64,000 bases of DNA from Zoogloea sp. (GCF_041914405.1 NZ_JAYSDK010000020.1:11077-75076); one strand, 5' to 3'. Positions 10,806 through 16,026 are shown, counted from the stretch's first letter. Numbers and translations are program-made. The notes: a model not told the origin generated them from the sequence alone.

Positions 10806-10835
10806 CGGCGTGCAATGGTGCACTGCAATAGTGCG
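10806..10835 (+). promoter_or_regulatory. Overlapping NtrC-like enhancer sites
   Basis: TGCACTGCAATAGTGCG (10819-10835) and a perfect half-site TGGTGCA (10816-10822) versus TGCACCA-N3-TGGTGCA, 40-70 nt upstream of the sigma54 element. Confidence 0.5.
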
Positions 10836-10875
10836 TGTCGAGGCAGTTTGGAAGCGGAAATGCAGGGATTTCCGA

Positions 10876-10891
10876 TGGCATGGAACTCGCT
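10876..10891 (+). promoter_or_regulatory. Sigma54 (-24/-12) promoter of the pyrimidine operon
   Basis: TGGCATGGAACTCGCT with exact GG-N10-GC spacing. Confidence 0.7.
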
Positions 10892-10900
10892 TGAAAAAAA

Positions 10901-10916
10901 TTGACCATATGGTCAG
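10901..10916. promoter_or_regulatory. RutR box
   Basis: TTGACCATATGGTCAG, one mismatch to the RutR palindrome TTGACCA-NN-TGGTCAA; overlies the predicted sigma54 start site. Confidence 0.85.
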
Positions 10917-10933
10917 GTTTTCAGGAGCGAAGC

Positions 10934-12178: not shown

Positions 12179-13419
12179 ACCACGGATCGGGATGGCACAC
12201 GCCGGTTTCCGCCGGTCATCCGGCGGCGTTGTTGTTGAGTTCGATGGCGGTGCGCGAGCGCTGCCGTGTCGTTACGGCACGGGTGGAAGCGGGTCTGTCG
12301 CCATTCTTCACCTGGCATCCGGAGCAACTGTTGCCCTGCGCCGAGTACGTGGCGCAGACCATCCGCCTCAACTATCCGGATCTCGACGTGCCCTATCACA
12401 GCCGCTGGCGCCACTTCGAGGCCGGCGGGCGGGACCGCTGGAGCGTGCTTGCCGGCACTCACGGCCTGGACGGCGACCGCCTGGAGCGGGCCCGTGTGGC
12501 GGTGGATCTGGTCATCCCCAGCGTGCTGCTGGACGCCGGGGCCGGCGCCGAGTGGCGTTACCGGGACGTGGCCGGCGGCATGGAACTGGGCCGCTCCGAA
12601 GGGCTCGGCGTGGCCAGCCTGGCCTTGTTCGCCGGCGGTGCGCTGTCGGCCGATCCGGCCAGCCCTCTACGCTGCGATGCGGCGGCGCTGCAGCGCCTGT
12701 CGCCGGAGGTGCTGGCCGCGGCCTTCCAGGTCGGGCCGGCCAATCCGCTGGTCGGGCTGGAGGGGCGCAGTGCGCTGTTGCAGCGCCTGGGGGCTGTGAT
12801 GGAAGCGACGCCGGCGGTGTTCGGCACACCGGCCCGCGCCGGTACGCTGGTGGATTACTTGCTCGCCCACGCCATCGACGGCCGGATCGCCGCGTCCTTC
12901 GTGCTGGGCACGCTGTTGCGCGCTCTTGGCCCCGTGTGGCCGGGCCGCGTGGTGCTGCAGGGCGTACCGCTCGGCGACTGCTGGGCCCATCCGGCGCTGG
13001 AGGATGGCTTGCTGCCTTTCCATAAGCTGACCCAGTGGCTCACCTATTCCCTGCTCGAACCGCTGGAAACCGCAGGGCTGACGATCACCGGGCTGGACGA
13101 ACTGACCGGCCTGCCGGAGTATCGCAATGGTGGCCTACTGCTCGACTTCAGGCTGATCCGTCCGCGCGAGGAGCGCTTCTGGCGTCATGCCTGGACAGTG
13201 GATGCGCCGCCCGTCGTCGAATGGCGGGCCCTCACCGTAACGGGCCTGGACCGGCTCGCCGTCGCCGTCCGCGAGTTGCTCGGGCTGGCGCCGGAAGCTT
13301 TTCCGCTGGCCCGTGTGCTGGAAGGCGGCACCTGGTCGGCCGGCCGGCGCATCGCCGCCCAGCGCCGCTCCGGCGGCACGCCGCCGGTGAAGCTGATCAG
13401 CGACGGCACCGTGTTTTGA
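12175..13419 (+). CDS. URC4/Urg3-family protein (DUF1688)
   Basis: ATGA overlap with the upstream gene; [67 protein letters not shown]. Confidence 0.88.
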
Positions 13420-13445
13420 AACCACTGCACGCACTGGAGGACTGT

Positions 13446-14078
13446 ATGAGCGCACCCCTTACCGTCATCGACCACCCCCTGCTGCAGCACAAGCTGTCCA
13501 TGGCGCGCAGCGCGGAGACCACCACCGACAACTTCCGTCGCTTGGTGCGGGAGATCGCCTCCATGCTGGCCTACGAGGTGACCCGCGATCTGCCCACCGA
13601 GTTGATCGACGTGACCACCCCGGTGGCGCCCTGCAAGGTGCCGGTGATCAGCGGCAAGAAGCTGTGCCTGGTGTCTATCCTGCGGGCTGGCAACGGCATG
13701 CTCGACGGCATGATCGACCTGCTGCCCGGCGCGCGGGTCGGGCACATCGGGCTGTACCGGGATCCGGAAACGCTGGAGGCCATCGAGTATTACTTCAAGC
13801 TGCCGGACGACGTGGAGGATCGCCTGGTGATCGTCGTCGATCCGATGCTGGCCACCGGCAATTCGGCCAGCGCAGCCTTGTCGCGCCTCAAGGAGGCTGG
13901 CGTGACCAGCCTCAAGTTCGTGTGCCTGCTGGCCGCGCCAGAGGGGCTGGCCGCGTTGCAGGCGACTCACCCGGACGTGCCGGTGACGACCGCCGCGGTG
14001 GACAGCCACCTCAACGAGCACGGCTACATCGTGCCCGGTCTGGGTGACGCCGGCGACCGTATCTTCGGCACCAAGTGA
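13446..14078 (+). CDS. upp: Uracil phosphoribosyltransferase
   Basis: [31 protein letters not shown] loop [29 protein letters not shown]. Confidence 0.96.
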
Positions 14079-14761
14079 CGCTAGCGTCGCAGCCCGGGGG
14101 CGTGGACGCGCCCGCCCGCGGCGGGCGCATCCGGCGCCAGCACGAGGCCGCCATCCTCGCTGCCGCCGAACAGGTCTTTGCGCGGGCCGGCTTCCAGGGC
14201 GCCACGATGGCGGAGATCGCGCTGGCGGCGGGCCTGCCCAAGTCCAACCTGCATTACTACTTCGGCACCAAGGCCGAGGTTTACCGGGCCGTACTGGCGC
14301 ACATCCTGCGCCTGTGGCTGGCCGAGACAGATCGCATCAATGCCGACGCCGACCCGAGCGAGGCGCTGGCCCACTACATCGAGGCCAAGATGTGCCTCAC
14401 CGCCGAGCATCCGGACGCCTCGCGGGTCTTTGCCAACGAGTTGCTGCATGGCGCGCCGGAGATCGGCGACTATCTACGCAATGAGCTGCGCCTGCTGGTG
14501 GCCGACAAGGCGGCGGTGATCGAAGCCTGGATCGCCGCCGGCAAGATAGCGCCGGTGGACCCGGAGCACCTGTTCATCAGCCTGTGGGCGCTGACCCAGA
14601 CCTATGCCGACTTCGAGACTCAGGTTTGCGCTGTGCTGAACCGCCGCAGCCTGGGGCCGGCGGACTACCGGCGGGCCACCGCCCATGTGCTGAACCTGGT
14701 GCTGCGCGGCTGCGGCCTCGCACCCCCCATTTCGGAAGGAAATTTCCCGTGTTCGACCTGA
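14075..14761 (+). CDS. rutR: RutR-like TetR-family regulator
   Basis: GTGA overlap with upp; [24 protein letters not shown]...[11 protein letters not shown]; C-terminal [13 protein letters not shown]...[19 protein letters not shown] typical of RutR; matching box upstream of the operon. Confidence 0.85.
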
Positions 14762-16026
14762 TCCTGCGCAACTGCAACCTGCCCGATGGCCGCCGTGGCA
14801 TGGATATCGGCATCCGCGACGGGCGCATCGCCGCGGTTGAGGCCGCGCTGTCCGGCGAAGCGGGGGAAGTCATCGACGCGGCCGGCCAACTCGTCACGCC
14901 GCCGTTCGTCGACGCCCACTTCCACATGGACGCAACCCTGTCCTACGGCCTACCGCGGGTGAACCAGTCGGGCACGCTGTTGGAAGGTATCGCCCTATGG
15001 GGCGAGCTGAAGCCGCTGCTGACTCAGGAGGCGCTGGTGGAGCGGGCGCTGGCCTATTGTGACTGGGCGGTGGCCAAGGGCCTGCTGGCGATCCGTTCCC
15101 ACGTGGATGTGTGTGACCCGCGCCTGCTGGCGGTGGAAGCCCTGCTGCATGTGAAGGACAAGGTGCGCCCCTACCTGGATCTGCAACTGGTGGCTTTTCC
15201 CCAGGACGGCGTGTTGCGCAGCCCCGGCGCGCTGGACAACCTGAAGCGGGCGCTGGACATGGGCGTCGACGTGGTCGGCGGCATTCCTCACTTCGAGCGC
15301 ACGATGGCCGATGGGGCGGAGTCTGTGCGCATCCTGTGTGAGCTGGCCGCCGAGCGCGGCCTGCCGGTGGACATGCACTGCGACGAATCCGACGACCCGC
15401 TGTCGCGCCATATCGAAACCCTGGCTTTCCACGCCCAGCGCCTTGGCCTGCAGGGGCGGGTGACCGGCTCCCACCTGACGTCCATGCATTCGATGGATAA
15501 CTACTACGTGTCCAAGCTGCTGCCGCTGATGGCCGAGGCGGGGGTCGCGGCGGTCGCCAACCCACTTATCAACATCACGCTGCAGGGCCGCCACGACACC
15601 TACCCGAAGCGTCGCGGCATGACCCGCGTGCCTGAACTCCTGACCGCCGGCATCCCGGTCGCCTTCGGCCACGACTGCGTGATGGACCCGTGGTACAGCC
15701 TCGGCAGCGCCGACATGCTGGAAGTCGCGGCGATGGGCCTGCACGTGGCGCAGATGACCAGTCAGGACGGCATGCGCGCCTGCTTTGCAGCGGTGACGGC
15801 GGCGCCTGCGCGCATTCTGGGCCTGGACGGCTACGGCCTCGAACCGGGCTGTCGGGGCGACCTGGTGCTGCTGCAGGCCGTCGATCCCGTCGAGGCGCTG
15901 CGCCTGCGGGCGACACGTCTGCTGGTGCTGCGTGGAGGGCGGGTTGTCGCCCGCAGCCCGGCGGCTGTCGCGGCGCTGGCCCTGCCGGGACGGCCGTCCT
16001 GTGTGGATTTCACGCACCGCTCCTGA
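14749..16026 (+). CDS. codA: Cytosine deaminase-like amidohydrolase
   Basis: DAHFHMD, IRSHVDV, VAFPQDG, DMHCDE, GSHLTS, GHDCVMDPWY; GTG start overlapping the regulator's 3' end. Confidence 0.9.
   Translation: MFDLILRNCNLPDGRRGMDIGIRDGRIAAVEAALSGEAGEVIDAAGQLVTPPFVDAHFHMDATLSYGLPRVNQSGTLLEGIALWGELKPLLTQEALVERALAYCDWAVAKGLLAIRSHVDVCDPRLLAVEALLHVKDKVRPYLDLQLVAFPQDGVLRSPGALDNLKRALDMGVDVVGGIPHFERTMADGAESVRILCELAAERGLPVDMHCDESDDPLSRHIETLAFHAQRLGLQGRVTGSHLTSMHSMDNYYVSKLLPLMAEAGVAAVANPLINITLQGRHDTYPKRRGMTRVPELLTAGIPVAFGHDCVMDPWYSLGSADMLEVAAMGLHVAQMTSQDGMRACFAAVTAAPARILGLDGYGLEPGCRGDLVLLQAVDPVEALRLRATRLLVLRGGRVVARSPAAVAALALPGRPSCVDFTHRS

Follow-up and report, generated by a model that had tools for sequence, protein, structure and literature searches.

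The URC pathway of Lachancea kluyveri and the urg1-urg2-urg3 genes of S. pombe were described by Andersen et al. (2008, J Mol Biol; as cited in PMC3869809, PMC7530994 and PMC2174524). In the accounts given by these citing papers, URC1 and URC4 and their gene organization are conserved across numerous bacteria and fungi, and the bacterial clustering was already reported in 2008. In addition, Table S3 of Leyn et al. (2016; PMC5343134; RegPrecise) lists among the targets of the regulator RutR a GTP cyclohydrolase II homolog (ribA2) and a PF07958 gene in four genomes of one taxonomic group, as well as upp in nine genomes and codA in 13; for ribA2 and PF07958, the table gives neither a function nor a link to URC. 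Here, we analyzed a 64,000-nucleotide (nt) stretch of DNA from Zoogloea sp. (GCF_041914405.1, NZ_JAYSDK010000020.1:11077-75076; hereafter the window), in which five + strand genes, urc1-urc4-upp-rutR-codA, occupy positions 10934-16026. Through this single operon, a Zoogloea-like betaproteobacterium can probably obtain nitrogen from cytosine and from uracil via the URC route, under proposed control by sigma54, a RutR-family repressor and NtrC. The gene cluster, its first enzyme and its link to RutR are already present in the literature or in public annotation, so this is not a new system, and the current picture of pyrimidine catabolism is unchanged by our findings.

Organization and Conservation of the urc Operon

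A preliminary description of this DNA had proposed five co-oriented, mostly overlapping genes, and the positions of the open reading frames (ORFs), together with Pfam and NCBIfam profile matches, confirmed this arrangement (Table 1). The junctions consist of overlaps of 4, 4 and 13 nt plus a single 26-nt gap. The closest named homolog was that of Zoogloea sp. LCSB751 (97% identical). The broader proposal, a URC-type operon for pyrimidine catabolism in a bacterium with a cytosine deaminase added, is supported by the gene families, by synteny and by homology of the first enzyme to UTP (uridine triphosphate) cyclohydrolase. A sigma54 promoter with a RutR-type operator at its start site is likewise supported, and nitrogen scavenging, also proposed earlier, is still the simplest reading.

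We compared the operon with 80 loci encoding a URC1 homolog, taken from species-representative genomes. A co-oriented URC1-URC4-upp triad was found in approximately 65 of them, distributed over Beta-, Alpha- and Gammaproteobacteria, and a TetR gene following upp was observed in Betaproteobacteria only. In Zoogloea, Noviherbaspirillum and part of the Cupriavidus and Ralstonia loci, codA was adjacent. Elsewhere in Cupriavidus, rutR and codA are separated by a BMP-type ATP-binding cassette (ABC) transporter, and this transporter was the sole exception when clustering of the 80 neighborhoods revealed no conserved partner beyond the five genes. The lack of a transporter or urea-degrading gene, already noted for the window, was borne out by a profile scan of its larger ORFs, which revealed no nucleobase transporter, urease or urea amidolyase; the lack of the latter two counts against the proposed pathway. 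Nor was a urea-degrading gene conserved beside the cluster in the 80 loci. None of the rutA-G enzymes was present among the window ORFs scanned.

The URC1-Type Enzyme

The URC1-like protein was approximately 70% identical over residues 3-412 (E-value 3e-184) to the proteins of PDB entries 7EEV and 7EJ3, which carry the titles "Structure of UTP cyclohydrolase" and "UTP cyclohydrolase". Our AlphaFold2 model of URC1, built from a 10-sequence alignment, was poor (predicted local distance difference test, pLDDT, 45.7) and served only to retrieve these entry titles. The crystallized sequence shares 99% identity with a Rhodococcus protein. The earlier statement that such a bacterial system lacked any biochemical description was thus wrong, as a close bacterial homolog has been crystallized and named. 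The substrate in that name is UTP, and not uridine monophosphate (UMP), from which ring opening had been proposed to proceed; a UMP kinase and a nucleoside diphosphate (NDP) kinase would therefore be needed after Upp. Zhang and colleagues, cited for these entries (ACS Catal 2021;11:8895), are said to have found that a URC1 homolog hydrolyses UTP.

The window protein shares its architecture with the crystallized enzyme, as well as a Cys-X10-Cys-X-Cys motif (Cys243, Cys254 and Cys256) that is invariant in the alignment of URC1 homologs. From established knowledge of RibA rather than from a superposition, we take this motif to be the zinc motif of the GTP cyclohydrolase II fold. The crystallized enzyme is actinobacterial; that of the window, whose activity is a predicted one, falls within a betaproteobacterial clade. 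Six URC1 homologs from Variovorax, Xenophilus and Hydrogenophaga (P0164, P0180, P0196, P0226, P0229 and P0232) were 85-87% identical to the Rhodococcus UTP cyclohydrolase. Because these betaproteobacterial proteins are closer to the Rhodococcus protein than that of the window is, the comparison suggests that URC1 falls into two clades and has moved laterally between Actinobacteria and Comamonadaceae.

In public annotation, of which the NCBIfam equivalog model NF005536 and the source annotations are part, this family goes by the name 'GTP cyclohydrolase II', and upp and codA encode classical salvage enzymes. The cluster could on these grounds be read as combining pyrimidine salvage with riboflavin supply, URC1 being an ordinary GTP cyclohydrolase II, but we find this extremely improbable. 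The resemblance to RibA is limited to the C-terminal ~140 residues and the score of every RibA model is far under its cutoff, whereas the full-length protein matches one deposited as UTP cyclohydrolase. Moreover, URC1 is invariably linked to URC4 and upp, not to rib genes, and its gene lies behind a uracil-type repressor site and a sigma54 promoter. Given the PDB titles, the name attached to NF005536 is probably a systematic misnomer. Thousands of bacterial proteins carrying it and encoded beside URC4 and upp would then most probably be UTP cyclohydrolases serving in pyrimidine catabolism, by a route that is widespread among Beta-, Alpha- and Gammaproteobacteria as well as Actinobacteria.

The URC4 Protein and Its Relation to Qng1

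Bacterial DUF1688 proteins are named "URC4/urg3 family protein" by NCBI, and we found no biochemical assignment for the URC4/DUF1688 step in the searchable literature. In yeast, ribosylurea is reported to be degraded by URC4 and to accumulate in urc4 mutants. An AlphaFold2 model of the window URC4, obtained from 34 homologs, was of high quality (pLDDT 90.1; predicted template-modeling score, pTM, 0.89). Its only significant fold matches in the PDB were eleven DUF2419/Qng1 chains of bacterial and human origin (E 1e-8 to 5e-7, probability 1.0, template-modeling scores 0.60/0.76), the next match having an E-value of 0.48. Qng1 is a helix-hairpin-helix (HhH) N-glycosylase that cleaves queuosine-5'-monophosphate using D231 (followed by a strictly conserved Y232), K199, W302 and its C-terminal carboxylate (PMC9881137). 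In URC4, K284, E315-Y316 and W387 are invariant, and the C-terminal SDGTVF is invariant to the last residue. When positions 284, 315-316, 387 and 414 of URC4 are set against 199, 231-232, 302 and 323 of Qng1, the spacings are 31, 72 and 27 vs. 32, 71 and 21 residues. Both proteins are monomer-sized, mostly helical HhH-type folds with a C-terminal tail conserved to its end. They differ in that identity is only 14-18%, URC4 is ~90 residues longer and its candidate catalytic acid is Glu instead of Asp. The substrate of Qng1 is a 7-deazaguanine nucleotide, while that proposed for URC4 is ribosylurea or its 5'-phosphate.

Because of the Qng1-like fold, the invariant residues with their spacing and the yeast reports on ribosylurea, our modeling suggests that URC4 is an N-glycosylase releasing urea from ribosylurea, more probably from its 5'-phosphate. 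Sequence comparison provided no such link, which weighs against it: a profile search of the PDB with URC4 returned no match at E ≤ 10, and Pfam at the same threshold returned PF07958 only. URC4 could instead work as a partner to URC1 or process a nucleotide of the ring-opened, ureidoacrylate type, urea being released by another enzyme or spontaneously. This missing sequence-level link would fit such a role, as would Glu315 in place of the Asp of HhH glycosylases. The same holds for six alphaproteobacterial loci (L060, L064, L066, L068, L071 and L073) in which upp directly follows URC1 and no URC4 homolog was detected in the flanking sequence retrieved; there, URC4 may be located elsewhere, dispensable or replaced. 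We nevertheless consider a non-glycosylase function rather unlikely, since the model is of high confidence and its fold match specific to Qng1, since the invariant C-terminus recalls an enzyme whose terminal carboxylate lies in the active site, and since the yeast literature assigns ribosylurea breakdown to URC4. The full proposal is that URC4 is a Qng1-like HhH N-glycosylase, with K284, E315-Y316, W387 and the C-terminal carboxylate as candidate catalytic groups, which would release urea from ribosylurea-5'-phosphate and make the operon a complete nucleotide-level ring-opening route under a nitrogen/uracil AND gate. We put this combined version forward tentatively, giving it slightly less than an even chance.

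The Qng1 paper (PMC9881137) was not among the results of full-text literature searches on DUF1688 and URC4, and the URC4-Qng1 fold link appears to be unreported in the searchable literature. Such a link makes a long-standing "unknown function" directly and cheaply testable as an enzyme.

Predicted Sigma54 Promoter and RutR-Type Operator

Upstream of urc1, the preliminary description had placed a correctly spaced sigma54 promoter and a RutR palindrome with one mismatch over the start site, and both were recovered (Table 1). A degenerate -24/-12 pattern matched three times in the 64-kb window, against 0.41 matches expected. The operator TTGACCATATGGTCAG was the sole match to the RutR consensus (taken from PMC2475637) at ≤2 mismatches in the 64 kb, against 0.10 expected. 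It is centered at -25.5 from the start codon, 3' of the -12 element and over the predicted +1. An alignment of the three closest genomes (the window, L001 and L002) showed that the upstream intergenic region has diverged except for three islands, namely 10816-10834, 10867-10891 (the sigma54 element) and 10897-10936 (the RutR box and the ribosome-binding site). The positions of the sigma54 element and of the RutR box are conserved across Rhodocyclales and Burkholderiales.

The promoter could be judged in 66 loci of sufficient length, in which we looked for the palindrome YTGACY-N4-RGTCAR within 200 nt upstream of URC1. It was present in all 33 loci with the TetR gene and in none of the 33 without it (Fisher p 3e-19; several families are represented, but the loci are related and the p-value overstates their independence). 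Similarly, the -24/-12 element occurred in 28 of the 33 loci with the TetR gene vs. 2 of the 33 without. In 30 loci, the palindrome starts 8-18 nt past the -12 element and spans roughly -1 to +24. In four loci (L015, L034, L037 and L038), both the RutR-like gene and the palindrome are missing, yet URC1 is preceded by a good -24/-12 element for sigma54; this promoter appears able to stand without the repressor. A RutR box over the start site of a sigma54 promoter seems to be unreported in the searchable literature, and this placement, common to Rhodocyclales and Burkholderiales, may represent a modest novelty.

The TetR protein encoded within the operon shares 38% identity with E. coli RutR over 206 residues, and its best PDB matches are RutR structures. 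In E. coli RutR, residues L74, W77, L78 and W167 are important for uracil binding and specificity (PMC4325133). These four residues, along with Q171, are kept in all 23 URC-linked homologs (the window protein and 22 others). The protein nevertheless falls below the NCBIfam cutoffs for RutR equivalogs (193 < 368 for TIGR03613; 160 < 230 for NF011584), a point against a RutR in the strict sense. RutR is still the family that it matches best, and on this sequence evidence, we classify it as a RutR-family regulator and not as an equivalog of the rut-linked RutR. Since rutR lies inside the operon, we propose that it is autoregulated.

RNA evidence was available as assembled contigs from four biofilm metatranscriptome runs with near-identical sequence. 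In three of these (X12, X13 and X14), the contigs share a 5' boundary just upstream of urc1 (Table 1), with no coverage over 10844-10911, and the X13 contig has adapter sequence immediately 5' of 10917. Coverage runs through all five genes and the depth drops past 16077. The boundary lies 10-15 nt 3' of the predicted +1 (~10902) and 22-27 nt past the GC of the -12 element. RNA-seq libraries commonly lose ~10-15 nt from RNA 5' ends, and the offset is consistent with this usual loss during library preparation; we treat the contig boundary as supporting evidence only. Two aspects of the data reduce its weight, namely that the contigs derive from related strains (95-99% identical) and that one contig of the fourth run, X6, crosses the promoter, which could be due to DNA carry-over or read-through.

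The boundary, which lies farther from the -12 element than a sigma54 +1 would, could also be taken to indicate an ordinary sigma70 promoter merely repressed by RutR, with a coincidental -24/-12 match and the A-rich stretch 10894-10901 as a poor -10. We regard this as very unlikely. A search of the + strand over 10600-16700 revealed no sigma70-like promoter, the motif TGGCAY-N5-TYGCY holds its position in the 28 rutR-bearing loci mentioned above, which belong to several families, and it sits inside an invariant block; the offset itself is consistent with the general 5' loss. A sigma54 promoter remains our preferred assignment. Separately, the k-mer depth in X13 and X14 was in the thousands over the initial ~80 nt of the transcript (10912-10992), which comprise the leader and the first codons, vs. 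hundreds in the gene body. This could reflect a stable or prematurely terminated 5' fragment, or a stretch identical among co-occurring Zoogloea strains.

Candidate Activator Sites

The NtrC-like sites described earlier fared less uniformly. With the consensus TGCACCANNNTGGTGCA, no match at ≤3 mismatches was found in the promoter region. The best site, TGCACTGCAATAGTGCG (10819-10835), has 4 mismatches, and 8% of shuffled sequences contained an equal or better one; both results count against NtrC. What stands is that the 19-nt island TGGTGCACTGCAATAGTGC is invariant in the three closest genomes while its flanks have diverged, and that such sites are modestly enriched, the best upstream NtrC-type site averaging 4.25 mismatches across loci vs. 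5.53 in shuffles. The island is similar in quality to two candidate GCAC-N7-G(T/C)GC sites that can be read upstream of E. coli rutA. From the sequence, an NtrC-type activator is plausible and constitutes the weakest part of our proposal.

A different enhancer-binding protein could act at 10816-10834 on a genuine sigma54 promoter, possibly in response to a signal other than nitrogen. Besides the imperfect consensus match, the NtrC regulon table published by Leyn et al. (2016; PMC5343134) bears on this point: ribA2, PF07958, upp and codA are listed there under RutR and none of them under NtrC. The organism also encodes other sigma54 activators, two of them within the window. On the other hand, the enrichment of GCAC-N7-GTGC-type sites across loci and their likeness to the two rutA candidates point to NtrC, none of the loci has a conserved activator gene beside the cluster, a pattern in keeping with global regulation, and a nitrogen-scavenging role fits NtrC. 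On balance, an activator other than NtrC is the less likely option, although a far less improbable one than a sigma70 promoter, and NtrC is retained as the most probable candidate. In two papers on sigma54 and nitrogen starvation in Paraburkholderia, these genes were absent from the main text.

The two activators in the window are GAF-domain sigma54 enhancer-binding proteins encoded at 55067-56983 (-) and 60192-62354 (+). A consensus -24/-12 element, TGGCACGCCCCTTGCT (60085-60100, -), lies upstream of a cytochrome c gene (59577-60014, -) that is divergent from the second activator gene, and this arrangement looks like a separate sigma54-controlled unit. A further -24/-12 match at 52685-52700 (+) falls within or just 5' of a histidine kinase ORF.

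Features of the Locus and Its Surroundings

The features of the operon and of its control region are compiled in Table 1.

Table 1. Coordinates of the urc operon and its upstream elements in the Zoogloea sp. window.
Feature	Position	Strand	Remarks
Weak NtrC-like site TGCACCGTGGGTGGTCA	10788-10804	+	5 mismatches to TGCACCANNNTGGTGCA by inspection; only left half GCACCG kept in closest relatives
Candidate NtrC-type enhancer site TGGTGCACTGCAATAGTGC	10816-10834	+	19-nt island, GCAC-N7-GTGC; centered ~75 nt upstream of predicted +1
Sigma54 promoter TGGCATGGAACTCGCT	10876-10891	+	-24 TGGCAT, -12 TCGCT; correct GG-N10-GC spacing; predicted +1 near 10902
RutR-type operator TTGACCATATGGTCAG	10901-10916		13/14 match to consensus TTGACCAnnTGGTCAA; spans about -1 to +15
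5' boundary of RNA-derived contigs	10912-10917	+	Metatranscriptomes X12, X13 and X14; taken as mRNA 5' end region
urc1, URC1-type cyclohydrolase	10934-12178	+	414 aa; PF12471 (274.6 bits) and PF00925 (48.3 bits), both above cutoff; NCBIfam NF005536 (770 bits)
urc4, URC4/urg3 family (DUF1688)	12175-13419	+	PF07958, 464 bits, E 4e-139; 4-nt overlap with the URC1 gene
upp, uracil phosphoribosyltransferase	13446-14078	+	URC6 equivalent; TIGR01091, 269 bits, above cutoff
rutR, RutR-family TetR	14075-14761	+	PF08362 (YcdC-like C-terminal domain, 169 bits) and PF00440 (TetR_N)
codA, cytosine deaminase-family amidohydrolase	14749-16026	+	NF005748, 826 bits vs. cutoff of 438

The neighboring genes are unrelated to pyrimidine metabolism. 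They encode an OmpA-family lipoprotein, a ClC channel and a peptidase C26 upstream, and a 2'-5' RNA ligase-like protein, a TonB receptor and a resistance-nodulation-division (RND) efflux system downstream. A search did not find a terminator after codA, the sole terminator-like hairpin being located at 16596-16611. The region behind codA (16030-16645) contains four copies of a ~100-nt element, starting at 16030, 16186, 16381 and 16539 and sharing 61-78% identity. Each copy has a core GTGGTCAACCCTGTGG(A/G)TAA that contains a perfect or near DnaA-box-like TGTGGATAA, and an AT-rich stretch with GATC is found at 16240-16290. We rejected this region as a replication origin, as the GC skew keeps its sign there; the repeats may be a family resembling repetitive extragenic palindromes (REP) or miniature inverted-repeat transposable elements (MITE), or a DnaA-titrating cluster. 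Lastly, an Rfam match to RF02278, 'Betaproteobacteria toxic small RNA', was obtained at 62511-62578 on the - strand (61.6 bits vs. a gathering score of 50).

Proposed Pathway and Comparison with Known Systems

In the pathway that we propose, CodA would convert cytosine into uracil and ammonia, and Upp would convert uracil and phosphoribosyl pyrophosphate (PRPP) into UMP, both as expected from their families. Housekeeping UMP and NDP kinases encoded outside the operon would carry UMP to UTP. The URC1-type zinc enzyme would, by homology, open the uracil ring at the nucleotide level, and URC4, judging from its fold and the yeast urc4 report, could cleave the N-glycosidic bond of ribosylurea or its 5'-phosphate and release urea. 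Urea and malonate semialdehyde would be handled by genes located outside the window. Transcription is predicted to start at the sigma54 promoter, as indicated by the conserved element and the RNA 5' boundary. The operon-encoded repressor would bind the palindrome over +1 and be released by uracil, in view of the 13/14 operator, the co-occurrence of gene and box and the uracil-binding residues. Activation from the conserved upstream island would be due to an enhancer-binding protein responsive to nitrogen, most probably NtrC, this being the least certain step. In sum, the operon would be expressed only under nitrogen limitation combined with the presence of a pyrimidine. Transcripts of the operon occur in wastewater and biofilm communities, so floc formers of the Zoogloea type probably obtain nitrogen from nucleobases by the URC route.

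With the yeast URC/urg systems, the locus shares the core trio of URC1/urg1 (GTP-cyclohydrolase-II-like), URC4/urg3 (DUF1688) and uracil phosphoribosyltransferase, which in yeast is likewise clustered and uracil-responsive. Unlike in yeast, the genes form a bacterial operon with translational coupling, a TetR-family RutR takes the place of a zinc-finger factor, the promoter is of the sigma54 type and a cytosine deaminase is appended. Equivalents of urea amidolyase (URC3,5), URC2 or URC8 are missing nearby. Our searches of the literature on bacterial URC, on sigma54/NtrC control of these genes and on DUF1688 returned only yeast papers and the RutR regulon table. The RutR regulons of Leyn et al. 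(2016; PMC5343134) involve the same type of palindrome and the same target genes as the window, although the published tables do not describe membership of Zoogloea or Rhodocyclales or where the box lies with respect to a sigma54 promoter.

The view that the operon has adopted the regulatory logic of rut was overstated. According to the same tables, pydA/B/C are under RutR in 26-31 genomes vs. 12 for rutA; because it controls the reductive Pyd pathway in more genomes than Rut, RutR serves Proteobacteria as a general regulator of pyrimidine and purine catabolism and is not rut-specific. Moreover, the genes of this operon were already listed as RutR targets, and the wiring differs from that of E. 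coli rutA. The rut enzymes (the flavin monooxygenase RutA and others) are unrelated, and E. coli rutR is divergent whereas it lies inside the operon here. The rutA promoter of E. coli K-12 does show TGGCAT-N5-TTGCA, in a sigma54 element TGGCATCCGCTTTGCA ~30 nt before the start codon, as well as upstream GCAC-N7-G(T/C)GC sites, a RutR box and presumably the same logic of nitrogen limitation and pyrimidine presence. However, its RutR site, TGGACTAAACGGTCAA, which matches at 11/14 positions and has its center at -114.5 relative to the start codon, lies upstream of the promoter and beside the enhancer sites, unlike the 13/14 site downstream of the -12 element in the window. The repressor would act at the polymerase in the Zoogloea operon, while that of E. 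coli is placed next to the activator sites. Seen in this way, the urc1 promoter would be a compact two-input switch, responding to nitrogen and uracil, that is comparable with that of E. coli rut.

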